A stretch of DNA of 64,000 bases from Armatimonadota bacterium. Its GTDB lineage: Bacteria; Armatimonadota; UBA5829; DTJY01. Location of the stretch: positions 77,730 to 141,729 of the forward strand of contig JAIMAU010000006.1 of NCBI GenBank assembly GCA_023511795.1, read 5' to 3'. The notes beneath the pieces are model-generated. The model made no database searches. It was not told the DNA's origin and saw nothing but the letters and a program-made list of their open reading frames with translations. The position numbers were made by a program, and so were the translations under genes. Shown one piece after another: positions 24,334 through 62,470 of this stretch; the stretch's first letter is position 1, and the number at the start of each line of letters is the position of its first letter.

Positions 24334-24541
24334 AGCGCTGACGCCTATAAAACCAATTTTCCCAACACAAAACCGTAAAAAATCAACCATCCACACTCTC
24401 CAAGAGTGGTATAGGTGAGCATTGCAAAAGCAATGATATGTCGGTACAATAAACAAGAAACCTATGTCAAAGCTACCTAAAACCTTTAGTACTGCTAATC
24501 AGCTATCAACAACGAACCACTGATCACTAAAAGGACACACC

Positions 24542-37220: not shown

Positions 37221-37245
37221 CAGAGCTCGTTTTCCCTTCCACTAT

Positions 37246-38986: not shown

Positions 38987-39006
38987 ATGCTGCGTTGCTG
39001 AGTACG

Positions 39007-46188: not shown

Positions 46189-46198
46189 CTTTTTGCTA

Positions 46199-47095
46199 AT
46201 GACTAACAAAACCTTAGATCTGCAAGCATATTTTTCGGAAAAGCGCAAGCAAATAGAAGCCGCCCTCGACAGGTTTCTGCCACAAGAGGACCGGTACCCA
46301 CAAATCCTCTTCCGCGCAATGAGATATAGCGTCTTAGATGGTGGCAAGCGGATAAGGCCAGTCCTCGTGTTGGCGGCATGCGAAGCTGTAGGCGGTGATT
46401 CCGAAAAAGCCTTGCCTACAGCATGCGCCGTTGAATTCATCCATTCCTTCTCCTTGATTCACGATGACCTCCCTGCATTAGACAACGATGACTTCCGAAG
46501 AGGCAAGCCTACCAATCACAAGGTCTTTGGAGAAGCCATGGCAATACTTGCAGGAGATGCGCTCCTGGCGCTTGCATTTGAAACAATCACCAAAACGGAA
46601 GGGGTGCCTGCAAACACAATACTTGATGTAACGAGGCGGATTGCCGCCGCTGCTGGCACTGGAGGTATGGTTGTCGGTCAAGTTGTAGATATGGAGTCTG
46701 AGGGCAGAAAAATTGAGCTTGAAACGCTCGAATTCATGCATTCCCACAAAACTGGCGCATTAATCGAGGCGTGCATTGTTTGCGGAGGGCTTCTAGGCGG
46801 AGCAACTTCCGAACAGTTGGCGGAGCTGAGCCTTTATGGGCAAAAGATTGGTCTCGCGTTTCAAATTGTTGATGATATCCTCGACCTAGAAGGCGAACAA
46901 GAGAAGCTCGGCAAGACAGTTGGAAGCGACCTGCGCAAGCAAAAATCAACCTTTCCTGCAATACTTGGCTTGGAAAAATCAAAAGAAAAGGCTCTGCAAG
47001 TCACCCAAGAAGCCTTAAAAGCGGTAGAAAACTTCGACACGCGTGCAGAACCGCTCCGCGCTATTGCACGATTCATAGTTGAACGCAAGACATAA
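46199..47095 (+). CDS. Polyprenyl diphosphate synthase (FPP/GGPP synthase family)
   Basis: First Asp-rich motif LIHDDLPALDNDDFRRG. Second motif FQIVDDILD. About 300 aa. Confidence 0.85.
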   Translation: MTNKTLDLQAYFSEKRKQIEAALDRFLPQEDRYPQILFRAMRYSVLDGGKRIRPVLVLAACEAVGGDSEKALPTACAVEFIHSFSLIHDDLPALDNDDFRRGKPTNHKVFGEAMAILAGDALLALAFETITKTEGVPANTILDVTRRIAAAAGTGGMVVGQVVDMESEGRKIELETLEFMHSHKTGALIEACIVCGGLLGGATSEQLAELSLYGQKIGLAFQIVDDILDLEGEQEKLGKTVGSDLRKQKSTFPAILGLEKSKEKALQVTQEALKAVENFDTRAEPLRAIARFIVERKT

Positions 47096-47185
47096 AGTTA
47101 AGCAACGAAATTCTCTTCAAGAAAAGCTATGAATTAACACACTAGGCGCTGGTCTACGCTTTTCTGCAGAGGTGTCGAACTAAGA

Positions 47186-49279
47186 ATGTCGCAAAAGAAC
47201 GCAAGTTTCCTACGCCGAGAAGTACTGCCAATAGGGCTTGTTTTCCTTGCGGCAGTGACGCTTCGGGCTGTATACCTGTTGGAATACAAGGCACATATCC
47301 CCTACTATTACCGCGTTACCCTAGACTCCGCTTACTATGACGCATGGGCGCAGAGGGTCGCCGAGGGAAAAGGATATGGGCCGATGCCATTCTATATGGC
47401 GCCGCTTTACCCCTATTTTTTAGCACTAATTTACAAAATCGCTGGGCACAACTATCCTATTATTTATCTACTTCAGGCGGTGCTAGGCACTATAAACACA
47501 ATTCTTGTCTACATCATCGGGAGAAAGCTTCTAAGCCGAGCGGTCGGTCTTGTTGCTTCTGGACTACTGCTCATTTACTCGCCACTAATCTATCTTGAGA
47601 CCAAGCTTCTTACTGAGATACTTGCCATAACTTTGAATCTAGCCTCAATTTCCGCTCTGATTTATGCCACCGAGCGGCAATCAGCTAGCAGGTTTCTAGC
47701 CTCAGGACTGGCTTTCGGAATTAGCGCTTTATGCCGCCCTGCTGCCCTCATAATGGCCCTGCTCGCAGTTCTATGGCTCTTGCTAAAGTACAAACGCAAT
47801 AACCAAACAATCTGCTACACTGCAATCCTGCTAGTTGGCGTGGTGATTCCGATTATCCCAGTTACTGCTCGGAATTACTTTATAGGCAAGGACTTTGCCT
47901 TGCTTTCCACAAATGCAGGAATCGTGTTTGCCCAAGGGAACAGCGAATATGCAACCGGAATATCCACTCCGCTACCAGGGTTTAGCGGCACAATTCTTAC
48001 CCAACAGCAGGAGGAAATGGCTCAGGCATCGAGTGCACTCGGCAGGCAAGTCAAGCCATCCGAGTCATCGGCATATTGGTTCAGGCTCGCCTTGAGCTTC
48101 ATTTGCAAGCACCCATTCGAGTACCTGAAACTTCTTGGCCGCAAAGTCATCTGGTCGCTCCACAACCGCGAATCTCCCTGCAGTTATAATATTTATTATG
48201 AGCGCGAATATGTTCCTATTCTTCGCTGGCTTGCTTTGCCATTTCCCTTCCTTGCCGGACTCGGGTTATTTGGATGGAAAAGATTGCGCGATCGACAGGT
48301 CAGCATTCTTGGTCTATACATACTTTCGATTTTCTTAAGCCTAATGATTTTTTCCGTAAGTTCTAGATATCGTGCGCCGATGGTCCCGGCATTAGCAATT
48401 TTTTCTAGCTATGGGCTACTAGAAGCAACCAAGCTTGTTTTAAGAAGGAACATCCGCGGCATTATTTGCTTCATATTGTGCATCACTCTGATGTTTTTAC
48501 CTTCACTAGTGCGTTTCCCAACCCCCACAGTGACAGCAGAAGCGCCGACTAATATGGGATGGAGCTACATGGAGCAGGGCAAAGTCAAAGAGGCGATAGT
48601 CCAGTTCAAAAGGGCGCTGGAAATGAATCCAGAATTCTCACATGCGCATAACAACTTGGGCATTGCGTTAGCAAGACAGGGCAAAATTGACGAAGCCATC
48701 GCTGAATATGAGAAAGCCTTAAGACTCACACCCAACTACCCTGAAGCACATTTCAACCTTGGCGACGCACTTGTGCGCAAGGGCAGGCTCGATGATGCAA
48801 TCGCCCACTACCAAGCATCAATCCGGCTTAGGCCAGACTATGCCCCAACGCACGTTCACCTTGGCAACGCCCTACTTTTAAAAGGTCTGTACGACGAAGC
48901 AATTGCCAACTATCAAAAAGCACTCCAACTTGACCCAGAAGTGCCGGATGCGCGACACAATCTGGAGGTCGCCATTGCCACCAAAAATCTGCTTGAGGGT
49001 TCAAGCAAAAAGTCAAAGCAGAATCTGGCAATAGAACACTACAACAGAGCGAATGGCTTACTACGTGAAGGCAAGTTTGATGAAGCTGTAAAGGAATATA
49101 AGAAGGCATTGGCTTTTGATCCAAAATTTGGCCGTGCACACAACAACCTTGCGGTAGCGCTTTTTATGTCAGGACGATATGCGGAAGCATGGAACGAGGT
49201 CATGCTCGCAAAGAAATATGGCGCCGAGCCAAATCCCAACTTCCTTAGGGGACTATCAAAAAAGATGCCACAACCCTGA
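47186..49279 (+). CDS. GT-C membrane glycosyltransferase (GT39/PMT_2/ArnT-like) with C-terminal TPR domain
   Basis: About 450-aa polytopic N-terminal domain with a loop-1 acidic motif (TLDSAYYDAW). About 220 aa of TPR repeats (AHNNLGIAL, AHFNLGDAL, THVHLGNAL). Confidence 0.7.
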   Translation: MSQKNASFLRREVLPIGLVFLAAVTLRAVYLLEYKAHIPYYYRVTLDSAYYDAWAQRVAEGKGYGPMPFYMAPLYPYFLALIYKIAGHNYPIIYLLQAVLGTINTILVYIIGRKLLSRAVGLVASGLLLIYSPLIYLETKLLTEILAITLNLASISALIYATERQSASRFLASGLAFGISALCRPAALIMALLAVLWLLLKYKRNNQTICYTAILLVGVVIPIIPVTARNYFIGKDFALLSTNAGIVFAQGNSEYATGISTPLPGFSGTILTQQQEEMAQASSALGRQVKPSESSAYWFRLALSFICKHPFEYLKLLGRKVIWSLHNRESPCSYNIYYEREYVPILRWLALPFPFLAGLGLFGWKRLRDRQVSILGLYILSIFLSLMIFSVSSRYRAPMVPALAIFSSYGLLEATKLVLRRNIRGIICFILCITLMFLPSLVRFPTPTVTAEAPTNMGWSYMEQGKVKEAIVQFKRALEMNPEFSHAHNNLGIALARQGKIDEAIAEYEKALRLTPNYPEAHFNLGDALVRKGRLDDAIAHYQASIRLRPDYAPTHVHLGNALLLKGLYDEAIANYQKALQLDPEVPDARHNLEVAIATKNLLEGSSKKSKQNLAIEHYNRANGLLREGKFDEAVKEYKKALAFDPKFGRAHNNLAVALFMSGRYAEAWNEVMLAKKYGAEPNPNFLRGLSKKMPQP

Positions 49280-49353
49280 GCGCATGGCCCTGAAGCTTCT
49301 AGCTGGAGAAAAGGAAGTCTTGCCAGCTACGCTCACGCTGAACCCACTGCGCG

Positions 49354-51456
49354 CTAGTTAGCAACCGGACAGTGAGCTTCGTAATTTCGCAATCTCATCT
49401 CGATTTCGGGTGCAGCCGGTGAGCCCTGAGTTATAGCGAGCTGAAGCGCTCTGCGGGCCGTGGATATAGCTTGGTCATAGCGGCCAGCGGCGGCATAGGC
49501 GGCTGCAAGCGTATCCAGCAAACCCGAATCCTCATATCTGACGGCCTCGCATGCCGCTTTCGCCAGTTTTATCGCCTCTAGCGCATCGCGGTAAGTAGGC
49601 TTCTTCTGGGTTGCTAGCAACCAAGCCAGATTGTTCTTCGCCTCAGGCCAGTTTGGGCGAAGCTTTAATGCAACTCGGCAACTTTCAATTGCCTCACGCA
49701 CTTTTCCTAGCTCCCCCAATGTTATGGACAAATTATAATGTGCATCCGGCAGGAAAGGATCGAGTTCAATCGCCTTTTTATAACTCTCAACTGCCGCTCC
49801 CGATTTACCCTTTATGCCCAGAAGGATACCTAGATTGATGTGTGCTTGTGCATAATCCGGCTTCGCCATTAGAGCCTTATTGAAGTGCATGGCCGCTTCA
49901 TCAAGCCTTCCCTGCTTTAGAAGAAGTCCTCCGTAGTTGTTATGAGCCCGCGCATGCCTGGGATCTATTTTCAAAGCTTTTTGGAAATGAAAAGCGGCTT
50001 TTTCAAAGTCCATGCTTTCAAAATATGCAATTGCCAGATTATGATGTACATCTGCCCAAGTAGGTTCGATTCTCAATGCCTTCTTGAAATGCTTGATTGC
50101 CTGAGCATGTTTCCCTAGAGCGGTTAATGCAAGGCCAAGGTTGTTTTCGGCAACTGGATTTTCCTTTGTCACTTTTAGGGCATGGCTGAACAACGTCACG
50201 CTATCTCGCCAATGCGTCACTTGCCTTAATGTCGTTGCCGCTAGAATTATGACAAGAACACAAGCTACTGCTGAGAGAATAAGATTTCGTCTGACATCTG
50301 CTGTCTGGCACTTTATCCCAACCTGCTTGCCAGTTCGGATAGATTCAATTAAATCAGGGATTCCCCACGCTAGAATAACAAACAAGCCAATCAATGGTAT
50401 ATATGTGTATCTATCTGCCATCGCCTGCCAACCAACCTGGACAAGGCCAATCACAGGAACTAAAGTGCCCAAATACCAGAACCACCCAAACACAAGATAT
50501 GGCCGTCTTCGGGACTGCCAGAGCACCAAGGCAGTAATGGCAACAATAATCACAAGCGCACCCACCATTTTCCAAGTAACTATTACGGTTGGGTATGGAT
50601 AAAAGACCGATAGGCCGCTTGGAATTATCATCTTGCCAATATATGAGACATAGGAGATTAATGCATTGCCTATGCGCATTCCAACCGGGTAACGCTCCAG
50701 CGTGGCGACACTGAGGCCCTTCTGCTGAGCGATATACGTGACTATTGCAGAACTAATGGTAAGCCCAAAAAGGGGTATTTTCTCAACCAATAGTTTCTTA
50801 TTTGTAAGCGTAGAGAACAACGAGTGATTAGCAGCGCTAAAACGGCGAAGAGGCCAGAAATCCATGAGGAGAAGAACGAATGGGAGCGTCAAAACCATGG
50901 GCTTTGCCATCAATCCAAGAGCAAAGAAAGCGATAACTGGGATATAAGTTGCAATCCTAGGAGATTGAACATATCGGATGTAGGCTAATATCGCAATCAT
51001 CCAAAAAAGGGTGCTTAGAACATCCTTTCTCTCTGCTACCCAGGCAATCGACTCAACATGAAGCGGATGCACGGCAAACAAAGCCGCAACAAACCCACTC
51101 TTCCAAATCGACCCAGTAAGAATGCTAAAAATACCAAAAAGCAATAGCGTGTTTGCTATGTGTATAAGCAAACTTACGAGGTGGTGACCTATGGGATTCA
51201 AGCCGAAAAGCTGGCAGTCGAGCATGTGAGACAACCATGTAATAGGATGCCAGTTGCTTTCGTGCATTGTGGTGAACGCCCAGCCAACGTTTGCAAGCGT
51301 AAAGCCCCCCCTAACATGACTGTTGTCTGTCACATATTCGTCGTCGTCATAATTTATAAAGCCATTGCCGAATAGAGGCACAAAAGCAACGATGGCTACA
51401 AGCACAAGCAAACATCCAACCAAATATGACCTATACATTTTGACAAAGCCATCCAT
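49354..51456 (-). CDS. TMTC-like protein: DUF1736-type GT-C membrane domain plus C-terminal TPR repeats (paralog 4)
   Basis: NYDDDEYVTDN loop-1 motif. HPLHVESIAWVAERKDVLSTLF. WQAMADRYTYIPLIGLF. At least seven TPR units. Confidence 0.7.
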   Translation of the reverse strand: MDGFVKMYRSYLVGCLLVLVAIVAFVPLFGNGFINYDDDEYVTDNSHVRGGFTLANVGWAFTTMHESNWHPITWLSHMLDCQLFGLNPIGHHLVSLLIHIANTLLLFGIFSILTGSIWKSGFVAALFAVHPLHVESIAWVAERKDVLSTLFWMIAILAYIRYVQSPRIATYIPVIAFFALGLMAKPMVLTLPFVLLLMDFWPLRRFSAANHSLFSTLTNKKLLVEKIPLFGLTISSAIVTYIAQQKGLSVATLERYPVGMRIGNALISYVSYIGKMIIPSGLSVFYPYPTVIVTWKMVGALVIIVAITALVLWQSRRRPYLVFGWFWYLGTLVPVIGLVQVGWQAMADRYTYIPLIGLFVILAWGIPDLIESIRTGKQVGIKCQTADVRRNLILSAVACVLVIILAATTLRQVTHWRDSVTLFSHALKVTKENPVAENNLGLALTALGKHAQAIKHFKKALRIEPTWADVHHNLAIAYFESMDFEKAAFHFQKALKIDPRHARAHNNYGGLLLKQGRLDEAAMHFNKALMAKPDYAQAHINLGILLGIKGKSGAAVESYKKAIELDPFLPDAHYNLSITLGELGKVREAIESCRVALKLRPNWPEAKNNLAWLLATQKKPTYRDALEAIKLAKAACEAVRYEDSGLLDTLAAAYAAAGRYDQAISTARRALQLAITQGSPAAPEIEMRLRNYEAHCPVAN

Positions 51457-51623
51457 TCCGCGAGCAAACCTCCCTTAGCCTTTGGATATGTGGTAAATGA
51501 AATCCTCAAAAGGGATTTTAGCTTGTTTCGAATTTAATTTCGTGGTGCCTGAAAAATGCCAACCGCCTTGCCGAACCCCACTTCAAGAATAAGGTTTGCG
51601 ACATCTTAATCTCCCTAATCAAT

Positions 51624-53744
51624 CTATTCGCCGGGGTCGGGCATTTTTTGAGATAGTGAGTTCAGCAATGCAGGCACCGGATTAAACCCATACCTCTTGC
51701 AGAGATGTATTTCTTCCCACGCCTTAGCATATTCTCCTTTGTAAAAGTATGCCGCCGCCAAGTTATGGTGCGCTTCAGCATGGTCTGGCCTGATTCTTAT
51801 GGCGCGTTTATATTCCTTTATTGCTTCGTCATACTTCTTTTGAAGCAACAAAACATTGCCCAAATTGTTTAGTGCCTCTGGGTATTCGGGCTTGTAGCGA
51901 ATAGCCTCGCGATATGCCTTAATCGCTTCATCAAACCTGCCAAGTCGCTTTAGTGCCAACCCCATATTGTAATGCGCCTCAGCAAACGAAGGCTTTAGCT
52001 CAATAGCCTTTTTGTACTCTGCCAAAGCCTCGTCATACTTGCCTTGATCAGCAAGCATTTTTCCTATGCTAAGGTGGGCGCCGGCGTCGTCCTGCTTGAT
52101 TCCCAAAGCCCTGGAATAGTTTTGCAGTGCCTCTTTTGCCTTGCCTTGGGCAGCGAGAACATTACCCATGTTATAGTAGGCCCTTGGGTCATTTGGGTTG
52201 AGTTTGAGCACCTCTTTGTATTCGCGGATGGCGTCGTCGTACATGCCTAATTGAGCATATGCATTCGCCAAGTTACCGTGCGCATCGCCATACATCGGTG
52301 AAATTTCAAGCGCCCGCTTGTAGTGCGGAATCGCCTCCTCCAGTCGCCCCTGCCATGCCAGGGCAATTCCCAAGTTATTGTGTGCCGTGTCGTTATTTTC
52401 CGTAACAGCAAGTGCGCGTTCGAACAAGGTTATGCTGTTCTTCCAATACCCTACTTGAAACCATGTGCCTATCATTAAAGCAACAATTGCGATGCATGCC
52501 GCAAATGGAAAAACGGTCGCCTCTACTTTCTGCCTTCCATCCTCTTTGCCATCGGAATTACTCTTTCTCCTAGTCAATTCGGGTATTCCCCAAGCAATGG
52601 CTATGAAGAGACCAATCAGTGGTATGTATGTATATCTGTCAGCCATCGCCTGCATGCCAACCTGGACAAGACCAATCACTGGTACCAAAGTGCCGAGATA
52701 CCAAAGCCAACCCACCACCAGATATGGTCGCCTGCTCGCAAGCCGCCACACAAAATACGAAATGCTTGCAAGTACAATGAATCCCCACAGGACCTTCCAC
52801 ATCGCCAGGTCTCTACCAGGATGCGGATAAAAGCATGCTAAATCGTTTGGCCAGAGCGTTTTTCGAATATAGCTTGAATATGCAGCAAATGCATTAGCTA
52901 TTCGAACCCCGAATGGGTAAAACTCAAAGGTTTGAACCGAACCCTGTTTCTTCTGAGCATAGAAGGTTATCACACACGACACAAGGGTCATCAGAAAAAG
53001 CGGTGTTTTCTCCCTCAAAAGGTTCATATTTTCACTAAACCTAACAAAACCCTTGCCTGATTTTCGCCCATTCGCTAAATTGCCTGCCTTATGCGTTCCA
53101 TACACGCCGCCAGATACACAAAGCCCTAAATTACTAGAAAACGTCGTACGACCAAGGGGCCAGTAGTCCATTAGAAGGAGCACGAATGGAAGCGTTACGA
53201 GCATTGGCTTTGACATCAAACCAAGTGCAAACAAAATAACGACCGGCAAATAAGTTCCCAGACGCGGGGATGACGCATATCGGAAATATGCCAACATGGT
53301 AAGTAGCCAAAAGAAGGTGCTTAGAACATCCTTTCTCTCTGCAATCCATGCAACCGATTCGACATGCAATGGATGTATGGCAAATAGCGCTGCCACAAAG
53401 CCGCTTCTCCACACACATCCAGTCATTAACATGAGCACCGAAAAGAGAAGCACAACATTTGCTACATGAAATACCAAATTGGTCAAATGGTGGCCCATAG
53501 GATTAGGTCCATAAAGTTGGGCATCGAGCATATGGGATAACCATGTAAGCGGATGCCAGTTGCTCTCGTGAATTTTGGTAAAAGCCCACACAATGCTCGG
53601 CGCCGTTAGACCTGCTTGCACTGGTGGGTTATCCGTTACATACTTATCGTCGTCATAATTAGTAAAGTCATGTCGAAGAACAGGCCAATAGACCGCAACT
53701 GTAATAATGACAAGTAATAATCCCACTAAATATAGGGAGCGCAT
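51624..53744 (-). CDS. TMTC-like DUF1736 plus TPR protein (paralog 3)
   Basis: Start set at MRSLYLVGLL (RBS GGAAGGTGG) by alignment with the other paralogs. The track extension to 53903 would overlap the upstream gene. NYDDDKYVTDN, HPLHVESVAWIAERKDV and AMADRYTYIPLIGLF motifs. Confidence 0.7.
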   Translation of the reverse strand: MRSLYLVGLLLVIITVAVYWPVLRHDFTNYDDDKYVTDNPPVQAGLTAPSIVWAFTKIHESNWHPLTWLSHMLDAQLYGPNPMGHHLTNLVFHVANVVLLFSVLMLMTGCVWRSGFVAALFAIHPLHVESVAWIAERKDVLSTFFWLLTMLAYFRYASSPRLGTYLPVVILFALGLMSKPMLVTLPFVLLLMDYWPLGRTTFSSNLGLCVSGGVYGTHKAGNLANGRKSGKGFVRFSENMNLLREKTPLFLMTLVSCVITFYAQKKQGSVQTFEFYPFGVRIANAFAAYSSYIRKTLWPNDLACFYPHPGRDLAMWKVLWGFIVLASISYFVWRLASRRPYLVVGWLWYLGTLVPVIGLVQVGMQAMADRYTYIPLIGLFIAIAWGIPELTRRKSNSDGKEDGRQKVEATVFPFAACIAIVALMIGTWFQVGYWKNSITLFERALAVTENNDTAHNNLGIALAWQGRLEEAIPHYKRALEISPMYGDAHGNLANAYAQLGMYDDAIREYKEVLKLNPNDPRAYYNMGNVLAAQGKAKEALQNYSRALGIKQDDAGAHLSIGKMLADQGKYDEALAEYKKAIELKPSFAEAHYNMGLALKRLGRFDEAIKAYREAIRYKPEYPEALNNLGNVLLLQKKYDEAIKEYKRAIRIRPDHAEAHHNLAAAYFYKGEYAKAWEEIHLCKRYGFNPVPALLNSLSQKMPDPGE
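52609..52653. repeat. 45-nt segment identical to 56245..56289 inside otherwise diverged paralogs
   Basis: Both copies read agaccaatcagtggtatgtatgtatatctgtcagccatcgcctgc. On the minus strand this encodes AMADRYTYIPLIGLF. Confidence 0.8.
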
Positions 53745-53808
53745 TCCAAACCACCTTCCACTTCTTGCAAATGCCTTTGATGATACAAGAATTAGACATG
53801 AAGGAGGG

Positions 53809-55653
53809 TCACTCCTTGCCTGCTTTGATTGCCAAAAATTTCCTAAATTCGTGGTCAGGCTTAAAACCATGCTTCTCTGCCAGGCAAAGCTCCTCCCAGG
53901 CACGTTTGTATTCTCCTGCTATGAAGAATGCAACTGCCAAGTTGAAGTGTGCCTCAGCATAACTGGGTCTAATTTCGACAGCCTTAGTTAGATATTTTAT
54001 TGCACTTTGGTTGTCTCCTTTTTGGCCTAATACTGAACCGAGGTTCATCAGCGCCAATACATGGTCAGGCTTTATTGCTAATGCCTTTCTAAATTCCGCC
54101 TCTGCTTTTTCAAGCCTCCCTCGCGAACAAAAAGCAATCCCAAGATTGTAGTAGACATCGGCATCATCTGCGGTTCCCCTCAATGCTCTTGCGAACTCCG
54201 CCCCTGCAGAGTCCAAGTCTCCCTTCTCAGCCAAAGTAGTTGCTAAGTTCAAACGAGCATCGGGGTAATCCGGCCTAATCTCGAGAGCTCTTCGAAAATG
54301 AGCAACCGCTTCATCGATTCTGCCTTTTTCTTTGAGTGCCACCCCTAGGTTGTGATGTGCAAGCCAATTATGCGATGTCACTTTAATAGCATGGCTGAAG
54401 AGAGTCTGGCCATTCTGCCAATAACCAACCTGCACCCAGGTGGAAACCATTAGGACAGCGATGACCAATGGGGCTGCAATAGTGAATATCATGGACTCCG
54501 AAAACCGAGAAAAAGAAAATTTTTCTTCCCTGCTCATATATTCAGCCATGCTGGGCGCCAGCCATGCAATCATTATGAAGATGCCAATTAAAGGAATATA
54601 AGTGTATCTATCTGCCATTGCGTGGGAGCCGACCTGAACGAGCCCAATGACTGGGACAATGGTGATAAGATACCAAAACCACCCTACGGGAAGAAACGGC
54701 TTACGCTTACCTATCGCAAGCACCAAAAACGTTATTGCAACTATTAAGAGAGCTGCCCCGAGCACCTGCCACTCTGGAACTGAATCACCCGGATGCGGGT
54801 AGAATACTGCAAGCCTTCGTGGCCAGACGGTCTTTATAAGGTAGCCTACACACGCAACCAAAGAATTTGACAATCGGATTCCTAATGGAATGGCTTCCAA
54901 ACTTGCCAGGGCCCTGCCGCCTTTTTGAGCGATAAGTGCCCCGACGCTCGCGCCAAATGCGAGTATTAAAAGAGGTATTTTCTCAGCTAAAAGACTCTTG
55001 ACTGAAATCCTATTAATTAGCGAATGGCTTGACAGCGCAGTACGCCCAATAGGCCAGTAGTCCATGAGGAGGAGCACAAGCGGAAGAGTTACCAGCATCG
55101 GCTTGGCCATAAGACCCATTGCGAAAAACACAACAACAAGGATGTAGGTTCCAATCCTCGGAGAAGAGGCATACCTGACATATGCCCACAACGTCAACAT
55201 CAAAAACAGTGTACAAAGCACGTCTTTCCGTTGAGCGACCCACGCCACCGATTCTACATGAAGTGGGTGCACGGCAAACAACGCCGCAACAAACCAGCTC
55301 TTCCATGCTGAGCTAGTCATCTTATTTAAGACGGCAAACAGCAACAAGGTGTTTGCGATATGAAGAAGCAGATTTGTTAGGTGATAAATAAACGGTTTTT
55401 CTCCAAACAAGGTGTGTTCCAGCATGTACGATAGCCAAACCAAAGGGTGCCAGAAACAAGCTTCCGTTGTTGTGAACGCCCAGGTTATCCCCTCAACCGT
55501 CAGCCCACGCTTGACATGGTCGTTCTGTGTAATATAGACATCTTCATCAAAACCAACAAAATCGAAGTTTAATACTCGCCAATATACTGCAATTATTATT
55601 AAGACTAGAAGAAATAAGCGCACATAGCTAGCCAAATTAGGTTTATCTACCAT
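53809..55653 (-). CDS. TMTC-like DUF1736 plus TPR protein (paralog 2)
   Basis: GFDEDVYITQN. HPLHVESVAWVAQRKDV. HAMADRYTYIPLIGIF. TPR tail. Confidence 0.7.
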   Translation of the reverse strand: MVDKPNLASYVRLFLLVLIIIAVYWRVLNFDFVGFDEDVYITQNDHVKRGLTVEGITWAFTTTEACFWHPLVWLSYMLEHTLFGEKPFIYHLTNLLLHIANTLLLFAVLNKMTSSAWKSWFVAALFAVHPLHVESVAWVAQRKDVLCTLFLMLTLWAYVRYASSPRIGTYILVVVFFAMGLMAKPMLVTLPLVLLLMDYWPIGRTALSSHSLINRISVKSLLAEKIPLLILAFGASVGALIAQKGGRALASLEAIPLGIRLSNSLVACVGYLIKTVWPRRLAVFYPHPGDSVPEWQVLGAALLIVAITFLVLAIGKRKPFLPVGWFWYLITIVPVIGLVQVGSHAMADRYTYIPLIGIFIMIAWLAPSMAEYMSREEKFSFSRFSESMIFTIAAPLVIAVLMVSTWVQVGYWQNGQTLFSHAIKVTSHNWLAHHNLGVALKEKGRIDEAVAHFRRALEIRPDYPDARLNLATTLAEKGDLDSAGAEFARALRGTADDADVYYNLGIAFCSRGRLEKAEAEFRKALAIKPDHVLALMNLGSVLGQKGDNQSAIKYLTKAVEIRPSYAEAHFNLAVAFFIAGEYKRAWEELCLAEKHGFKPDHEFRKFLAIKAGKE

Positions 55654-57328
55654 CTGGATTTACCTGCCTCTTCCGCAGCATCTCCAGGGCTTGCTTTGCT
55701 GCCCTCAAATTCGGATTAATGCTAACAGCCTTTGCGAACTCCACAGTGGCCTCATCAAATCGGCCCAAGCCAGCCAATATTGCTCCAAGGTTGTAGTGCA
55801 CAAGGGCATTGGTTGGATTGAGGGATATAGCTTTTTGGTATTCACTAATGGCTTCATTAAAACGCCCCAATTTAGAGAGTGCATTACCCATATTGGTGTG
55901 TGCATCGGCATATTCAGGTTTGGCTCGAATAGCAGCGAAATAGTGGCAAATTGCCTCGGTATACCTACCCTCAGCCGCAAGAGCAACTCCCAAATTGTTG
56001 TGCATCAACCAATTATTATGCGTGACGGCGATTGCATGCCGATACAAAGAGATGCTATCTTGCCAGTAGCCAACTTGAACCCAGGTGGAGAACATTATAA
56101 CACCGACTGATATTCCAGCCGCCAATGGCAGAACATTTGAAGTGAAATAGTAAGGCAATCTGCCCTTCAACCTTTCGCCTTGCTTACCTTTGATTCTCAA
56201 ACACCCGACCACGTCCGGAACCCCCCAAGCGATCATAATAAATAGACCAATCAGTGGTATGTATGTATATCTGTCAGCCATCGCCTGCCCGCCAACCTGA
56301 ACAAAACCAATGACAGGAATAAGGGTGCTAAGATACCAAAGCCAGCCTGTTATGAGGAATGGTTTGGTACGTCTCGTAAACACCGCGACCAAAGAAATTG
56401 CCAAGAGAACTAGCATCGCCAAAACAACCTGCCAAGTTGCAATTAAATTACCAGGATGAGGATAGAAAACCGCTAAGTTCCTTGGCCAGAACATCTTGCC
56501 TATATAGTTGACATATGAGAGAACGGCATTAGCTGTGCGGATTCCTAGAGAGTACTGTTCAAAAGAACCAACAGCACCACCCTTCTGCTGAGCAATGTAT
56601 GTTATAACGCAAGACAAGATAGCTAAAATTAACAAAGGTACCTTCTCAAAAAACAGCCCCCTCATGGAAGCCGCTCTTTTAGTTGGCGATGAGCAAGAAG
56701 GAATGGACGAAGAAACACGGCAGAGGGGCCAATAATCCAAAAGAAGGAGCACAAAGGGAAGAGTCACCACCATTGGCTTTGACATTAGACCGAGGATAAA
56801 GAAAACAACAACTAAAGCATATTTGGTGAATATCGGATTTCTAACATATCCGATATATGCCAATATTGTGAGTAAAAAGAAAAACGTGCTTAGAACATCC
56901 TTTTTCTCTGCGACCCATGCTACTGACTCCACGTGAAGAGGATGCAAAGCAAACAACGCCGCAACGAAAGCACCCTTCCATTGTGAACTGGTTATCTTAC
57001 TCAGCAACCCAAAAAGCAATAGGGAATTCACTATGTGAAACATCAAATTAACAAGGTGATGACCAGCAGGCTTTAGCCCAAAGAGCATGCAATCGAGCAT
57101 GTGAAAAATCCAAGTAAGGGGATGCCAGTTGGCGGAATAGAATGATGTGAAAGCCCAATTAAGATTCTCTAAGCTTATCCCTGTCCTGACGTGCTCATTT
57201 AAAAGCACATATGGCTTATCATCGAAAACAAAATCGTGTCCCAGAACTCGACAGAAAACAGCCCCAGTTGCAAATGTCAGAATTAGACCAATGGCAATTG
57301 AAAGTCTGTTCGCATGCAGATGCATCAC
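55643..57328 (-). CDS. TMTC-like DUF1736 plus TPR protein (paralog 1)
   Basis: VFDDKPYVLLN. HPLHVESVAWVAEKKDV. GQAMADRYTYIPLIGLF. 11-nt overlap with the downstream paralog. Confidence 0.7.
   Translation of the reverse strand: MMHLHANRLSIAIGLILTFATGAVFCRVLGHDFVFDDKPYVLLNEHVRTGISLENLNWAFTSFYSANWHPLTWIFHMLDCMLFGLKPAGHHLVNLMFHIVNSLLLFGLLSKITSSQWKGAFVAALFALHPLHVESVAWVAEKKDVLSTFFFLLTILAYIGYVRNPIFTKYALVVVFFILGLMSKPMVVTLPFVLLLLDYWPLCRVSSSIPSCSSPTKRAASMRGLFFEKVPLLILAILSCVITYIAQQKGGAVGSFEQYSLGIRTANAVLSYVNYIGKMFWPRNLAVFYPHPGNLIATWQVVLAMLVLLAISLVAVFTRRTKPFLITGWLWYLSTLIPVIGFVQVGGQAMADRYTYIPLIGLFIMIAWGVPDVVGCLRIKGKQGERLKGRLPYYFTSNVLPLAAGISVGVIMFSTWVQVGYWQDSISLYRHAIAVTHNNWLMHNNLGVALAAEGRYTEAICHYFAAIRAKPEYADAHTNMGNALSKLGRFNEAISEYQKAISLNPTNALVHYNLGAILAGLGRFDEATVEFAKAVSINPNLRAAKQALEMLRKRQVNPDGR
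56245..56289. repeat. Second copy of the 45-nt identical segment
   Basis: Same sequence as 52609..52653. The flanks are only about 70-80% similar. Confidence 0.8.
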
Positions 57329-57591
57329 CCTCCGGAATCAGCAATTCGCTCATAAATGTAAATATCGTGTTGCTCAGGTAGTCCGCGGCCGTCCGCATCC
57401 CTATCCCAAAGATACAAAGTAAACTCCGGAGAGAGTATATCAATAATGCCAACTGTATGATAATTGTTCATAAGCTGATTTACAAACCAGCCGAATACTA
57501 TATTGGCCGATCCCCTAGCAATACGCCATGAACTTTGCATATTAAAGAAAATTAAATACTTTTGCTTTGTTCTACCAAGAAGCCGAATCAT
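57325..57591 (-). CDS. Small hypothetical protein (88 aa), translationally coupled on both sides
   Basis: ATGA overlaps with the 459-aa gene upstream and the 561-aa gene downstream. No recognisable motif. Confidence 0.4.
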   Translation of the reverse strand: MIRLLGRTKQKYLIFFNMQSSWRIARGSANIVFGWFVNQLMNNYHTVGIIDILSPEFTLYLWDRDADGRGLPEQHDIYIYERIADSGG

Positions 57592-58967
57592 GTCACGCTA
57601 CACATCTCTACAGCATATTTTTGGACTCCCATGAGCGGGTATGTGTAAATATAAGGCACGGCTGAACGACGATGTGCATAGAAGGGTATCTGTGGTTCAG
57701 ATCCAAATACTACAATTCTGTCCCTTTCAGTAGTATGCCTCCGGATATACTTGGCTATCTCTATTGATTCTGGAAACGGGCTGTGCCCGTAAACAGCTCT
57801 GCAAAGCATACGACCGTCTGTTTTAAACAAAAGATCCTCCTGCGTGTAAAGACCATAGTTTGATGCGAATATAAAAATAATGACGGGTATAAAACCGAGC
57901 GATGGGACTTTCGATTCTCTCAATACACGATTTATTGAGACGACGCTTCTAGCAACGAATAACGAGGCTGCGGGTAGCAAAAGTATGAAGTAATGCTGGC
58001 GAAAGTAGAGACCTGGACAACCAGCTAGGAATGAAAATACCAGCAAACCCACAAGAAACGCCGCATGCTCACGGGATTTCCTATCCCAAATAAACGCCGT
58101 CAGCCCAAATGCCGACAGAAACCATAGAGGCAAAACTGGTACCCCTATAACTTCGGCCGTTAGATTGAAATTCTCGATTCCGAAAGGAAGTGTGGTCAAG
58201 CTTGTATATTCGCTTGCATACTTAACCGTCCAGAACCAAAACTTTTCAAAAACCCCCACCGCCAAGAGTATAGCGCACGTAACAACGTAGGGAACTGCAA
58301 CCCCAACCGCCAGTAACCCTTCTGCATTAAGTAGCCTTGGCAACACAACTGAACGATTACTTAATCGAAGGTAGAAAGTATAAAGAATAGCAAAGATTGC
58401 AAAAAACATCCCATGCTGCTTAACAATAATCGCAAAACCAAAAAGCAAGCCGCTTAAGAAGAACATCGATGGCCGCCCTTTTGTGTAGGCTTTCAACAAA
58501 AGAAGCAAACCACCAACTGCAGGCAGTATGACAAAATGCTCAGAGTTGGCCCACAAACTTTGTATCCACGGGCTTATGGAGAACATAGCAAAGCTAATCC
58601 CTGAAATGACCCCAGCACACTCGCCCATCAAACGCTTGCCAACAAAGTAAATAAGAATAATAGTAGCAACATTTACGCCCAGAAGACCAAGGTGAATCCC
58701 AGCTATCGTCTGGCCAAAGAGTAGCATGATTAGCGCGTAGACAACATAGATTCCAGGCAACTTCATACTGTATGCCAGAAGGTAGGGCAGTACTCCATCA
58801 AGCATGAGTTGTGCCATATAGGCATATTCGCCTTCGTCCCTCTCCAATGGAACACCTAGAAATCGGATTCGGACTATAATGATAAGCGCTATTGTAAGGA
58901 GAAGCGCTCCGCGAAGAACCCAAATGTAATGCCACTTAAGCTTTTCTCGCAAGTTTTTCAAACGCAT
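57588..58967 (-). CDS. GT-C membrane glycosyltransferase (GT39/PMT_2/ArnT-like) without TPR, first gene of the minus-strand array
   Basis: About 12 TM helices. Loop-1 RDEGEYAY (DE motif, as in PMT/ArnT-type enzymes). Confidence 0.65.
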   Translation of the reverse strand: MRLKNLREKLKWHYIWVLRGALLLTIALIIIVRIRFLGVPLERDEGEYAYMAQLMLDGVLPYLLAYSMKLPGIYVVYALIMLLFGQTIAGIHLGLLGVNVATIILIYFVGKRLMGECAGVISGISFAMFSISPWIQSLWANSEHFVILPAVGGLLLLLKAYTKGRPSMFFLSGLLFGFAIIVKQHGMFFAIFAILYTFYLRLSNRSVVLPRLLNAEGLLAVGVAVPYVVTCAILLAVGVFEKFWFWTVKYASEYTSLTTLPFGIENFNLTAEVIGVPVLPLWFLSAFGLTAFIWDRKSREHAAFLVGLLVFSFLAGCPGLYFRQHYFILLLPAASLFVARSVVSINRVLRESKVPSLGFIPVIIFIFASNYGLYTQEDLLFKTDGRMLCRAVYGHSPFPESIEIAKYIRRHTTERDRIVVFGSEPQIPFYAHRRSAVPYIYTYPLMGVQKYAVEMCSVT

Positions 58968-59123
58968 GTTTTCTAATTATGCTTCGAAAAATTGCACTTT
59001 CTGCACTATTGCGACTGAGGGGAATTAAAATTCAAAAAAAGCATTTATATTTGTTGCGTGGCAAGTCTAACACGAGGTTTGACGCGGTGTCAACACGGGC
59101 TAGAATTAATCTGCTCACTTTGG

Positions 59124-59152
59124 TTGACCCTCATCATAGCCTATGCTATACT
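59124..59152 (+). promoter_or_regulatory. Sigma-70-type promoter for cdaA-cdaR
   Basis: TTGACC (59124-59129), 17-nt spacer, TATACT (59147-59152). Divergent from the GT-C array. Confidence 0.5.
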
Positions 59153-59198
59153 TTTTCAAGAATTTTTAAAGATACTTTGGCGGCAAACAAGAATCAAA

Positions 59199-60086
59199 AT
59201 GAATGTTGGGTTAATAATATTGCCCTGGCGATTTTTTAGCGTAGATTACATCTGGCCCGTTGTGGATGTAATTGTAGTCGCCTTTGTCATTTACAAGCTA
59301 ATGATGCTTGTAAAAGGCACGCGCGCATGGCAGATAATGTGGGGATTAGGAATATTCTTCCTCTTAGTTTTTATAAGCGACTACCTCCACCTCCGAGCAC
59401 TCAACTGGATACTTAGAGTATTTGTCCCCTTGGGCCCGGTTGCGCTTGTAATCCTCTTTTTTCCAGAGCTTCGCCATGCCCTTGAGGAAATTGGCCGGCT
59501 AAAATTTCTAGGCCACGGTTTCCATGCTCTAGGGCGAGAAGACATCATGGACTTCGTTGATCAACTTAGCAAGGCTATTGCCGAGATGTCAAGGACCAAA
59601 ACAGGCGCACTTATTGTAATAGAACGTGACGTTGGCCTTGACAACATTATTGCAACTGGCAACAAGCTTGATTCGGCTGTTTCCGCTGAGCTTCTGAAGA
59701 CAATATTTCATCCCGGCAGTCCGCTCCACGATGGGGCGGTTATAATCCGAGGCAACCGAATCGTTGCTGCGAGCTGTACGCTTCCTCTTAGCGACAATCC
59801 AAGGTTTGGTACGATGATTCATACCAGACACAAAGCAGCTCTAGGGGTCGCTGAGGAGAGCGACGCAATCGTATTGGTTGTTTCGGAAGAGACGGGAACA
59901 ATTTCTTATGCAGCAGAAGGAGAGCTTCTCCGCGGGTTGAGCCCTGAACAGGTCCGCGCAAAGCTTATTGAAGCGTTCCAACTTACCCCAGAAGACGAGA
60001 GGAGGTTCAGGCTCGGGCGAACGGTCTCAAACGCATTCTTAAAAGTGCGCATTGGGAGCACGCCAGGCGAGCGGAGAAACCCATGA
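59199..60086 (+). CDS. cdaA: Diadenylate cyclase CdaA (membrane-anchored DAC domain)
   Basis: ATG at 59199 gives the canonical N-terminus (three TM helices, DVIVVAFVIYKLMMLVKGTRAWQI). DAC-domain motifs DGAVIIRG and RHKAALGVAEESDAIVLVVSEETGTISYA. The track start at 59058 is rejected. Confidence 0.85.
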   Translation: MNVGLIILPWRFFSVDYIWPVVDVIVVAFVIYKLMMLVKGTRAWQIMWGLGIFFLLVFISDYLHLRALNWILRVFVPLGPVALVILFFPELRHALEEIGRLKFLGHGFHALGREDIMDFVDQLSKAIAEMSRTKTGALIVIERDVGLDNIIATGNKLDSAVSAELLKTIFHPGSPLHDGAVIIRGNRIVAASCTLPLSDNPRFGTMIHTRHKAALGVAEESDAIVLVVSEETGTISYAAEGELLRGLSPEQVRAKLIEAFQLTPEDERRFRLGRTVSNAFLKVRIGSTPGERRNP

Positions 60087-61063
60087 TTAGGCACAACTTC
60101 CCATACAAACTACTTGCCTTGGGTATAGCGCTCGTCATATGGTTCTATGCCAACAAGGGATACAACCCAAACGTCTCCAAAGAACTATCCGGCATTCCGC
60201 TGGCAGTCCGCAAGGTCGAACCAGGCCTAATTGTTACCAGCAAACCTGCTACAATCAAGGTCATCCTCGAAGGTCCTCGCGAGCATGTCGACGCAATAGC
60301 TGCAGACCCAGAGGAAATACAAGTGCACGTCAGCGCCCGAGGGAAGGGAGAAGGCAAGCATAAGTTACCAGTAATTGTTACTCCCCCCCAAGGCTATGCT
60401 GGGCTAGTGCGGGGCACAGCCGTTCCCAGCGAAGTCTTCATCACCCTCGTCCGTGAGGCTCGACGGGTTATGAAAGCGGAGGTTGATTTTGCCGGCAGTC
60501 CCCCCGTAGGCTTTCGTTTTGGCGCTCCCTCATTTACGCCTGCTAAGGTAGTTGTTCGGGGAATGCCCGAGCTCGTAAACCGCATAAGCCGCCTAACCGC
60601 AACTGTGCAACCAGGAGAACTAAGAGAGGGAATCATAGAGGGAGACTATCTATTAATTGCGCGGGACAGCAACGACCGCGAGATTCGCGGAATTGATATA
60701 TCGCCAAGCAAAGTTCACCTTCGACTTAGTTTAGAGAAAGTCCCTGCTAGTCGCATGGTATTTGTATGCCCCACAATTGTTGGACGCCCCCCTTTCCCTT
60801 ACAAAGTAAGCAACATTGACGTCCAACCGCAGACAGTAGCACTGAATGGCCGGCCGGAGCATTTGATGCGTATAAGCACGGTGGGAACTGAGACGCTAAA
60901 CCTCTCAAATCGTACTCGGTCTTTTACTCAGCGTCTCAAGATAGTGCCTCCCCCAGGAACTTCCATCTCGAATGGAAGCAGAGTTCAAGTTAGCGTCCAA
61001 ATTGCCTTAATTCAGCCTGAGGCGCCAAGCTCTCCGCCCAAACCCAATAACGAACCGCAGTGA
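60083..61063 (+). CDS. cdaR: CdaR/YbbR-like regulator of CdaA
   Basis: ATGA overlap with cdaA. N-terminal TM helix followed by about 300 aa of tandem YbbR-like beta domains. Conserved cdaA-cdaR gene order. Confidence 0.75.
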   Translation: MIRHNFPYKLLALGIALVIWFYANKGYNPNVSKELSGIPLAVRKVEPGLIVTSKPATIKVILEGPREHVDAIAADPEEIQVHVSARGKGEGKHKLPVIVTPPQGYAGLVRGTAVPSEVFITLVREARRVMKAEVDFAGSPPVGFRFGAPSFTPAKVVVRGMPELVNRISRLTATVQPGELREGIIEGDYLLIARDSNDREIRGIDISPSKVHLRLSLEKVPASRMVFVCPTIVGRPPFPYKVSNIDVQPQTVALNGRPEHLMRISTVGTETLNLSNRTRSFTQRLKIVPPPGTSISNGSRVQVSVQIALIQPEAPSSPPKPNNEPQ

Positions 61064-61093: not shown

Positions 61094-62470
61094 TTATGCT
61101 GCCTTATCCTGCGATTCCTCCTCAAAACCTTCTGTGGAGAGTTCGTTCAGAAACGCCTCAACAACCTTGGGATCAAACTGGGTGCCACTGTTATTCTTCA
61201 ACACCTCAATTGCTTTGCTTATGGAAAACCCTTTCCTGTATGGCCGGTTCGAAGTTAAGGCATCGAAAGCATCTGCGACAGCGATTATGCGCGCAAAAAG
61301 GGGTATTTCTTCCTGAGCAAGCCCTGAAGGATATCCTGTTCCATCATAACGTTCATGGTGATATAGAATTCCCGGCAGTATCAAATCAAGATTTTGCGAG
61401 CCGCGGATGATAGAACCGCCTAACTGCGGATGTGCCCTGACAAGTTTAAGCTCATCTTCCGTAAGACTTGCCGGTTTTTCAAGCACACAGTCCGGCACGC
61501 CAATTTTCCCGATATCGTGAAGTCGGGCAGCCATATGTAGTAGCTCCAACTGCTCATTATCTAGCCCAAAATGCTTGCCAATCAGCAAAGCATACCTGCT
61601 GACATTTTCCGAGTGGTTTCGCGTATATGGGTCTCGGGCATCTATGGCTGCAGCCAAGACCTTAATCGCACTTCCTGTCGGGTCTTGCAAGAACATAGAG
61701 ACATGAGAAGGATCACTTGCACGCATCCCACTGCCGGCTTTGTAAGCACATATTCGGTCACGCCCAAGTCGCTTTGCCTGATAAAGCGCCGAATCCGCCG
61801 CCATTATCAAACCCATTTTCTCCTGGCTGTGGTGCGGGTATACAGCTATCCCTATGCTTACCGTCAAGCTTATTGCTTGGTTCTCGGCATCCCCTATCAA
61901 TTCTTTGGTAAGCTTAAACGCGTGTGCGGATACAGCTTTTCTAATCCTCTCGGCAGTTTTCAAAGCACCGAGCAATCCTTCCCCAGGTAGTATAATGGCA
62001 AACTCCTCACCACCATATCTAGCTGCAATGTCCTTTTCATGTAGATTTCGCTTAATTAAGCCAGCTATCTGGCGGAGGATATCATCACCAGCCATATGTC
62101 CCAGCGAATCATTAATCAACTTGAACCTGTCAATATCAAGCATCAGCAGAGCAAGTTCGTCCGATTGCTGCTTGGCATGGTCAATCTCTTCTTGCAACCT
62201 TGCTTGAAAGTAACCATGGTTGTAAAGCCCAGTTAGATAGTCCAAATTAATTTGTGAAAGCATTTCTTCCTTATGTTCGAGCAATCGCAGAATTTCATTG
62301 AAAGCACTAGCAACCTGACCTATTTCATCGCACCTATGGTCATCCGTAAACCTTGCCAACCCTCCTTTGACCACAGCATGCAAACGACTGACAAACTGCG
62401 TGATTGGACGAAAGATAATCGCTGAGAATATTGAGGCCAGCATGATGGAAAATATAACGGATGTTAACAA
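61094..62470 (-). CDS. TM-HAMP-GGDEF-HD-GYP protein: cytoplasmic portion of a sensor c-di-GMP enzyme
   Basis: RYGGEEFAIILPG (GGDEF active site). HDIGKIGVPD and HHERYDGTGYP (HD-GYP). N-terminal TM helix plus HAMP-like segment. TTG start inside the A7/T7 run. Confidence 0.85.
   Translation of the reverse strand: MLTSVIFSIMLASIFSAIIFRPITQFVSRLHAVVKGGLARFTDDHRCDEIGQVASAFNEILRLLEHKEEMLSQINLDYLTGLYNHGYFQARLQEEIDHAKQQSDELALLMLDIDRFKLINDSLGHMAGDDILRQIAGLIKRNLHEKDIAARYGGEEFAIILPGEGLLGALKTAERIRKAVSAHAFKLTKELIGDAENQAISLTVSIGIAVYPHHSQEKMGLIMAADSALYQAKRLGRDRICAYKAGSGMRASDPSHVSMFLQDPTGSAIKVLAAAIDARDPYTRNHSENVSRYALLIGKHFGLDNEQLELLHMAARLHDIGKIGVPDCVLEKPASLTEDELKLVRAHPQLGGSIIRGSQNLDLILPGILYHHERYDGTGYPSGLAQEEIPLFARIIAVADAFDALTSNRPYRKGFSISKAIEVLKNNSGTQFDPKVVEAFLNELSTEGFEEESQDKAA

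Follow-up and report, generated by a model that had tools for sequence, protein, structure and literature searches.

Why does a bacterial contig carry six large, co-located genes for GT-C-type membrane proteins (A plus B–F), and on what would such enzymes act? For the window (the whole 64-kb stretch of DNA that was analyzed), the preferred reading, held at a probability of roughly 55%, is that the locus encodes six polyprenyl-phosphate-sugar-dependent GT-Cs of three types, and that B–E glycosylate exported proteins.

Gene content and layout of the locus

46193..47095, plus strand: FPP synthase gene (IspA-type), 90 nt upstream of A and co-oriented; Pfam polyprenyl_synt 1.3e-64
47186-49279, plus strand: gene A, 697 aa; PMT_2-type GT-C membrane domain (about 1-445) and C-terminal TPR array
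49354-51456, minus strand: gene B, 700 aa; TMTC-like GT-C membrane domain and 286-aa TPR tail; last in the minus-strand string
51624-53744, minus strand: gene C, 706 aa; TMTC-like GT-C membrane domain and 274-aa TPR tail
53809-55653, minus strand: gene D, 614 aa; TMTC-like GT-C membrane domain and 204-aa TPR tail; the copy chosen for modeling
55643-57328, minus strand: gene E, 561 aa; TMTC-like GT-C membrane domain and 141-aa TPR tail
57325-58967, minus strand: gene F, frameshifted; PMT_2-type GT-C with C-terminal alpha/beta periplasmic domain
57588-58967 (459 aa) and 57325-57591 (88-aa ORF), minus strand: the two parts of F, one gene
57597..57603, minus strand: net +2-nt indel splitting F; TGT where the close relative L001 has C (L001 alignment and frame change in tblastn)
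59064..59093, minus strand: sigma-70-like promoter match upstream of F, TTGACA-18-TAGACT; consensus match only

All six proteins have a GT-C membrane fold. The initial annotation had counted seven GT-C genes, and had joined six minus-strand genes into an operon through 4- or 11-nt overlaps. The count is six, as the 88-aa ORF is the frameshifted end of F: in L001 (DNA 95% identical) F is a single, intact 546-aa gene, and the ORF was therefore rejected as a separate gene. The reading frame of F was shifted by the net 2-nt gain; the deposited NCBI protein P0122 carries the same truncated end (...VEMCSVT), and at least two frameshifts relative to L001 were found in the window assembly, one in F and another around 62465-62485 in a GGDEF/HD-GYP gene. 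That F is broken in this assembly counts against the preferred reading.

The minus-strand string thus comprises five genes (F, E, D, C and B, ORF88 not counted), and the overlaps hold for F/ORF88 (4 nt), ORF88/E (4 nt) and E/D (11 nt) only. D and C are separated by a 64-nt gap, taking the C start at 53744 (backed by upstream GGAAGGTGG and by an identical 706-aa NCBI protein, P0051), and C and B by a 167-nt gap; start candidates for E were GTG 57328 or ATG 57325. The two gaps weaken the case for a single transcript, and the string is treated as a putative operon. Promoter and terminator scans of the region returned nothing convincing and did no better than on shuffled sequence, sigma-70-like matches being no more frequent there than expected after shuffling.

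Gene A had been described as a convergent GT39-like gene with TPRs. PMT_2 (1.1e-16, 61.9 bits, cut-off 26.1) and many TPR models were matched by A, but the Pfam scans gave no PMT (PF02366) or MIR match in any of A–F, and there was no NCBIfam match (no meaningful one for B–F, none for F); the NCBI label 'glycosyltransferase family 39' appears to derive solely from the PMT_2 match. The membrane domain of A was nearest to the F family (hhalign E 1.3e-7, vs. 0.08 for TMTC and 0.32 for B–E), and its ortholog in L001 was 96% identical. Gene A is a third type of GT-C, PMT_2-type with a TPR tail of its own. Gene F resembles the PMT_2/ArnT GT-Cs and carries an alpha/beta domain on the periplasmic side; Pfam PMT_2 scored 40.0 bits (cut-off 26.1), and the structure model matched Pmt4 (22.6), STT3B, ArnT and PglB. 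F probably works in the same pathway as B–E, since it heads the same co-directional minus-strand string and F-like genes recur directly upstream of such arrays in other phyla (L029, L033 and L062).

Genes neighboring the locus were cdaA, ybbR, ispA and folD. A prenyl synthase does lie directly upstream of A, as had been noted, but it is an FPP synthase of housekeeping type (NCBIfam NF045485, 387.5 bits, cut-off 275), and a functional tie to the GT-C genes was rejected on this identification. Its gene stands in an accC-nusB-folD-ispA string, and the order accC-nusB-folD-ispA-A is identical in L001. The enzyme is therefore probably housekeeping and outside the glycosylation system, and gives no specific pointer to a glycosyl-carrier pathway.

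Homology, architecture and motifs of B–E

Each of the four tandem paralogs B–E combines a membrane domain with TPR repeats C-terminal to it, and their pairwise protein identity is 47–49%. The catalytic domains are 51–57% identical, vs. 39–47% for the TPR sequences. Pfam PMT_2 (PF13231) scored 33.9 bits for D, 29.8–30.8 for B and 26.9 for C (gathering cut-off 26.1), with no match for E, though E is 48–49% identical to B–D over its full length.

The TMTC-like assignment made initially was borne out by profile comparison. A reference profile was built from 21 eukaryotic TMTC1-4 database sequences, authenticated by source names, and the B–E family profile aligned to it (hhalign) with a probability of 100% and E 3.7e-62 over 587 columns. 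For the B–E membrane domain alone, E was 1.4e-22 over 385 columns; the F family gave E 0.005. By sequence, then, B–E are placed as bacterial members of the TMTC branch. A PDB sequence search with the membrane domain of D returned nothing at E ≤ 1. The assignment of DUF1736 was not upheld: Pfam PF08409 matched none of B–E at E ≤ 1, and was found in 0 of the precomputed domains among the 120 homologues listed. It is carried by nearly all authentic TMTCs listed, and the corresponding region (loop EL4) aligns profile-profile with the bacterial family, but is divergent.

The TMTC-like order of membrane domain and TPR array was recovered in the predicted structure of D (AF2), which has a GT-C fold, 11 TM helices and TPRs from residue ~415. 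In D, loop 1 is acidic and a cytoplasmic loop carries KRKP; from these charges and the 11 helices, the TPR domain of the model is predicted to share its side of the membrane with the DD loop. An O-antigen ligase identity for B–E, which the initial annotation had named as an alternative family, was rejected, as Pfam scans found no Wzy_C domain (O-antigen ligase, PglL, PilO) in any of A–F.

An acidic loop-1 motif had been claimed for all of the proteins, and was present in B (DDDE, in NYDDDEY), C (DDD), D (DED), E (DD) and F (DE), but not in A, where only D-S occurs. All of 53 family members have D36, and at least 90% of them have Asp at position 37. HPLHVES, ERKD, a conserved Lys and DRYTY occur in further loops of B–E that are predicted to be periplasmic. 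About 50 membrane-domain columns are invariant across the 53 diverse members, including the loop-1 Asp, HPxHxE, K-D and D-R, and all four copies keep them.

TMTC motifs M1 (DD), M3 (RxD/E), M4 (KE(T/Q)xxT), M5 (DW) and M7 ((E/D)RxxY) have been defined (PMC7801869); in models of TMTCs, the Glu of M4 and the Asp of M5 are proposed to bind metal. In the 53 members, M1, M3 and M7 align to the invariant or near-invariant D36/D37, R142-K143-D144 and D348-R349..Y352. M4 retains its Lys and Thr but has Pro in place of Glu (K184-P185), and M5 DW aligns to an invariant Y285-P286. His or Tyr of the invariant FYPHP loop may take over from the DW metal site of TMTCs. The two unconserved acidic residues and the unmatched DUF1736 count against the preferred reading.

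Family distribution and genomic neighbors

The bacterial TMTC-like family comprised 18,099 clusters (50% identity, E ≤ 1e-30) from many phyla, and B–E are an ordinary example of this very large family, to which the locus adds little beyond a clean case. The source annotations of homologues read 'tetratricopeptide repeat protein', TadD or PilF, and no paper characterizing the family was found in the literature, in line with the statement that its bacterial members are essentially uncharacterized. The fourfold expansion that had been singled out is not special, since tandem copies (2–6 per locus) occur at 26 of 81 other loci, and each window copy is nearer to relatives in other organisms (56–68%) than to its siblings (50–55%). 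A recent lineage-specific expansion was rejected on the same comparison. In L001 the four genes stand in the same order with orthologs 92–97% identical, on an independent contig of 149.8 kb that originates from a different sample. Looking up contigs by exact sequence returned nothing for window D or P0051; only a 94%-identical ortholog (P0001) was placed.

Neighbor clustering identified a GT2 of ~250 aa as the most recurrent neighbor (10 of 80 loci), directly adjoining and co-oriented in L018, L034, L043, L069 and L074. Its best matches were all polyprenyl-phosphate-monosaccharide synthases (PpgS, AglJ, Dol-P-hexose transferase, ArnC and DPMS 5mlz). No polyprenyl-phosphate-sugar synthase was found in the 64-kb window or in 22 kb of L001. 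Beyond the GT2 and F-like genes there was no strongly conserved partner across the 80 loci, the other clusters being histidine kinases, ABC ATPases and housekeeping enzymes; neighbors were otherwise poorly conserved, and no candidate acceptor was found linked to the arrays. The recurrent GT2 and F-like genes speak for the preferred reading; the missing synthase, the missing acceptor and the poor conservation of other neighbors count against it.

Proposed function and comparison with known systems

The likeliest function of B–E would be periplasmic protein glycosylation from a polyprenyl-phosphate sugar. Loop 1, the first periplasmic loop, would bear the catalytic Asp-Asp/Glu. At the outer face of the inner membrane, each enzyme would take a monosaccharide from a polyprenyl-phosphate sugar and pass it to Ser/Thr of exported proteins captured by the TPR domain. 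The four copies may act on different acceptors, which would fit a retained catalytic domain alongside TPRs of varying length and sequence. Protein O-glycosylation with several acceptor specificities, as initially proposed, is a reasonable inference; the donor type, the protein acceptors and the distinct specificities are all putative.

Since TPR domains have roles in exporting polysaccharides and in assembling complexes as well, the protein acceptor is putative. The GT-Cs could instead decorate a non-protein envelope acceptor (lipid A/LPS core, capsular or exopolysaccharide, peptidoglycan-linked polymers) in an ArnT- or arabinosyltransferase-like manner, with the TPR docked to export or assembly machinery. 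This is considered rather unlikely: the full-length homology of B–E is specific to TMTC protein O-mannosyltransferases and not to ArnT-like sequences, the characterized GT-C plus TPR enzymes TfpW and TMEM260 both act on proteins, and no polysaccharide-synthesis or export genes adjoin the window locus. It is less probable still that some or all tandem copies are inactive membrane-anchored TPR scaffolds (pseudoenzymes), with the GT-C fold as an anchor or lipid-binding module. PIG-U provides a precedent for a non-enzymatic GT-C fold (PMC7801869), and the absent M4 Glu and M5 Asp and the TadD/PilF-like labels of homologues would suit such a role, but the invariant membrane-domain columns kept in all four copies fit an active site better than an anchor.

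That the tandem array is an assembly artefact, with repeats of a single gene collapsed or duplicated, is scarcely credible; the initial annotation had listed evidence of such duplication among the findings that would refute it. The frameshifts relative to L001 do indicate imperfect base-level quality in the window, but the copies differ in length as well as being only 47–49% identical, and the same array is repeated on the independent L001 contig; duplication of a single gene was rejected on these grounds.

A broader proposal is put forward tentatively, and is judged possible but doubtful: tandem TMTC-like genes, an F-like GT-C and, in other genomes, the adjoining GT2 may together make up a periplasmic system for protein O-glycosylation that is undescribed but widespread among diderm environmental phyla (Armatimonadota, Planctomycetota, Verrucomicrobiota, Desulfobacterota and others). 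Through its TPR, each paralog would recognize its own class of exported proteins, folded or unfolded, and the system would represent a prokaryotic counterpart of the eukaryotic TMTC pathway and perhaps its ancestor. To our knowledge, protein O-mannosylation by TMTCs is known in eukaryotes only, and loss of TMTCs leads to brain malformation and hearing loss. Bacterial proteins that bear the generic TPR, TadD and PilF labels are full-length TMTC homologues, often in tandem arrays; should they prove to glycosylate proteins, much of the glycosylation of periplasmic and surface proteins in environmental bacteria has so far been overlooked, and a tractable bacterial model for the TMTC mechanism would be available.

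Compared with PMT/POMT (GT39) and ArnT (GT83), A–F differ in the Pfam scans by the lack of a MIR match, the MIR domain being a hallmark of GT39 PMTs. Human TMEM260, a DUF2723 O-mannosyltransferase, is alike in architecture, with a GT-C fold, 11 TM helices and a luminal acceptor-recognizing TPR, which is sufficient to bind acceptor peptide (bioRxiv 10.64898/2026.03.17.711096). Its five-stranded alpha/beta luminal domain loosely recalls the C-terminal domain of F, whereas Pfam gives PMT_2 and not DUF2723 for A and F, and F is without TPRs. P. aeruginosa TfpW, the pilin D-arabinofuranosyl transferase, is an inner-membrane GT-C that combines 11 TM helices with a TPR domain on the periplasmic side, and is required for pilin O-glycosylation (bioRxiv 10.1101/2020.04.19.049825). 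It shares with B–E the predicted number of TM helices (11), the placing of a DDx motif in a periplasmic loop and the C-terminal TPR, a likeness drawn from architecture and described features, not from sequence. However, tfpW occurs as one copy, immediately after pilA, whereas B–E form an array with no pilin gene found beside it (no pilin family in Pfam scans of the 64-kb window).

The eukaryotic TMTC1-4 (GT105) are Dol-P-Man-dependent protein O-mannosyltransferases of cadherins. B–E differ from them in having no Pfam DUF1736 match, in M4 (KP, not KE), in M5 (invariant YP, not DW) and in M2 (NWHP, vs. SHKSYRP in TMTC), and their genes occur in tandem arrays; their donor lipid would have to be a bacterial polyprenol and not dolichol. 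Common to both are about 11 TM helices, a GT-C domain, a C-terminal TPR on the catalytic side (as predicted for B–E), the DD loop 1, HPxHxE, RxD/E and (E/D)RxxY.

Gene content and layout of the locus

Six large polytopic membrane protein genes and one 88-aa ORF (ORF88) lay between 47186 and 58967, with the same base composition as the remainder of the window.

Genes and ORF of the locus
47186-49279, +, A, GT-C protein with TPRs, 697 aa
49354-51456, -, B, TMTC-like, 700 aa
51624-53744, -, C, TMTC-like, 706 aa
53809-55653, -, D, TMTC-like, 614 aa
55643-57328, -, E, TMTC-like, 561 aa
57325-57591, -, 88-aa ORF
57588-58967, -, F, GT-C protein, 459 aa

Read from 53744, upstream of which GGAAGGTGG lies, C is exactly the NCBI-annotated 706-aa protein P0051 of an Armatimonadetes MAG. 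Overlaps were present at F/ORF88 (4 nt), ORF88/E (4 nt) and E/D (11 nt), and gaps of 64 nt at D-C and 167 nt at C-B; of the overlaps on which the initial annotation based a six-gene operon, the first three exist and the last two do not.

The window was compared with L001, a 149.8-kb contig of a close relative from a different sample (94.8% DNA identity across 20.2 kb, gene order identical), in which F is one 546-aa ORF; the usual length in the F family is 540-560 aa. Near 57597-57603 the window has TGT vs C in L001, a net +2 nt that shifts the frame, and ORF88 was ruled out as a separate gene because this indel splits F. The GT-C genes, previously counted as seven, therefore number six, of which five share the minus-strand orientation. 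The NCBI-deposited protein P0122 has a truncated end identical to that of the window F, so the frameshift is present in the public assembly. AlphaFold modelling of the intact ortholog (pLDDT 92.3) puts the break point mid-way through a compact C-terminal alpha/beta domain. That domain (C-terminal ~150 residues; L001:6689-8329, ortholog of window 57325-58967) is five-stranded, mostly with pLDDT above 85, and PF27757, a recent Pfam model, is present in some F-family members. A HAMP-GGDEF-HD-GYP gene (61094-63093, -), a single 666-aa ORF in L001 (95% identical), is likewise split in the window (62464-63093 and 61094-62470; frame change near 62470-62482), and two frameshifts in the 13 genes compared hint at assembly indel errors or gene decay.

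Relationship to TMTC proteins

In Pfam scans, PMT_2 (cut-off 26.1 bits) matched A (61.9 bits) and F (40 bits), barely passed in D (33.9), B (30.8) and C (26.9), and was not found in E; TPR arrays were rich in A-E and not found in F. DUF1736, the label given earlier to B-E, had no match at E <= 1 and was absent from the precomputed domains of all 120 homologues listed, and the label was dropped. NCBIfam models gave nothing for B-F, and a PDB sequence search with the D membrane domain gave no match at E <= 1. For D, AF2 predicted 11 TM helices with TPR hairpins after them (pLDDT 87.6, pTM 0.85); since loop 1 is acidic and the TM8-TM9 loop reads KRKP, the DD loop and TPR domain are predicted to share the non-cytoplasmic side. 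Structural matches of the F model were Pmt4 (22.6), STT3B, Pmt2, ArnT (19.8) and PglB.

A2, an alignment of D with B, C, E and 49 homologues, had ~50 invariant membrane-domain columns and the consensus motifs FVNYDD, NWHPLTW, HPLHVESVAWVAERKD, GLMAKPMLVT and QAMADRYTY. Against the human TMTC3 N-terminus, A2 gave a probability of 99.3% (E 1.3e-20). This query was verified: the numbering of D31/D32, S66-P72, R143/E145 and K188-Q190 agrees with Table 4 of PMC7801869, and a database search returned TMTC3 orthologs (identity up to 96%), with PF08409 in nearly all listed matches. Five DUF1736-positive matches of that search (P0300, P0305-P0307, P0311), 48-50% identical to human TMTC3 and on short ENA/JGI metagenome contigs, are probably eukaryotic DNA within metagenomes. 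Profile-profile comparison with 21 authentic TMTC1-4 sequences (A3) gave a probability of 100% and E 3.7e-62 over 587 columns, from TM1 through the TPRs. With the membrane domain only, E-values were 1.4e-22 (385 columns) for the B-E family vs TMTC, 0.005 vs the F family and 0.32 vs A, and 1.3e-7 for A vs the F family. The TMTC-like assignment of B-E was thus borne out, and three GT-C types are distinguished: TMTC-like (B-E), PMT_2-type with TPRs (A) and PMT_2-type with an alpha/beta domain (F).

TMTC motifs (names from PMC7801869) in the bacterial family, from A2 and the A2-A3 alignment, numbered as in D
M1 (DD): kept, D36/D37
M2 (YRP): WHP
M3 (RxD/E): kept, R142 K143 D144
M4 (KE(T/Q)xxT): Lys and Thr kept, Pro in place of Glu
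M5 (DW, inside DUF1736): opposite invariant Y285-P286 of FYPHP
M7 ((E/D)RxxY): kept, D348 R349 Y352

By alignment, the bacterial TMTC-like family keeps the putative catalytic loop and phosphate-binding residues. Of the two metal-ligand residues proposed from TMTC models, neither is conserved in it.

Paralogy, distribution and gene neighbourhood

Pairwise identity among B-E was 47-49% overall; the membrane domains were 51-57% identical and the TPR tails (286, 274, 204 and 141 aa in B, C, D and E) 39-47%. Each was closer to proteins of other organisms (56-68%; a set picked by similarity to D only) than to its siblings (50-55%), so the copies are old paralogs and did not arise by a recent, lineage-specific expansion. 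The D membrane domain retrieved 84,437 clusters at 50% identity (E <= 1e-3), 50,062 at 1e-10 and 18,099 at 1e-30, and genome matches came from Desulfobacterota, Verrucomicrobiota, Planctomycetota, Nitrospinota, Acidobacteriota, Armatimonadota, Hydrogenedentota, Ignavibacteria and Chlorobi. At 26/81 other loci, 2-6 copies lay inside 10 kb, nearly all same-strand.

Flanking the locus are accC-nusB-folD-ispA-A and, at the opposite end, cdaA-ybbR. The polyprenyl synthetase that the initial annotation placed next to A was identified as FPP synthase; A begins 90 nt past it on the same strand (46193-49279, +). As the accC-nusB-folD-ispA-A order is kept in L001, A may be co-transcribed with these housekeeping genes and not with B-F. 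Divergent from F are cdaA (DAC domain, c-di-AMP synthase) and ybbR (59058-61063, +), with promoter-like hexamers in both directions within 59064-59152. Elsewhere in the window are a Golvesin_C, fn3 and Ig-like domain protein (15702-17264, -), GH109-like and NamZ exo-muramidase genes (23140-25744, +) and an AcrB/HlyD/ABC-2/TolC efflux cluster (31915-40362, -), the last suggesting a diderm envelope.

No GT2 donor synthase was found in the window. Over 80 loci, the commonest neighbour was a ~250-aa GT2 (10/80), whose best matches, all under family cut-offs, were polyprenyl-phosphate-monosaccharide synthases (PpgS, AglJ, Dol-P-hexose transferase, ArnC, DPMS). F-like genes lie upstream of arrays in three MAGs, one each from Armatimonadetes, Deltaproteobacteria and Verrucomicrobiota.

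GT2 genes near TMTC-like genes
L018:3860-4615, L034:9182-9928, L043:5488-6924, L069:17286-18059, L074:6630-8114: directly adjacent and co-oriented (five loci, several phyla)
L033:1534-2289: order GT2, F-like gene, three TMTC-like genes

Proposed function and known systems

The best-supported reading, from sequence and comparative analysis, is that B-E would be periplasm-facing glycosyltransferases using a polyprenyl-phosphate sugar, with TPR domains that may recruit protein acceptors; the donor sugar, the acceptors and one specificity per paralog are what we infer. The grounds for this reading are the specific TMTC homology and two characterised GT-C+TPR enzymes, TfpW (bioRxiv 10.1101/2020.04.19.049825) and TMEM260. 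In the chief alternative, the acceptor would be an envelope component other than protein. That B-E are inactive scaffolds is unlikely, because the putative active-site residues are invariant.

The initial annotation was right on the reality and outline of the feature and wrong in several details. The locus typifies a family that is very large, visible in databases and experimentally untouched; it is itself moderately interesting, and the family-level question is worthwhile. A literature search found no paper on the bacterial TMTC-like family, and PMC7801869 and PMC8724618 treat TMTC homologues in eukaryotes only, or as distant GT-C relatives. The TPR domain of TMEM260 can by itself bind the acceptor peptide (bioRxiv 10.64898/2026.03.17.711096), and the C-terminal alpha/beta domain of the F family bears a loose resemblance to a Rossmann-like domain reported on the luminal side of that enzyme.
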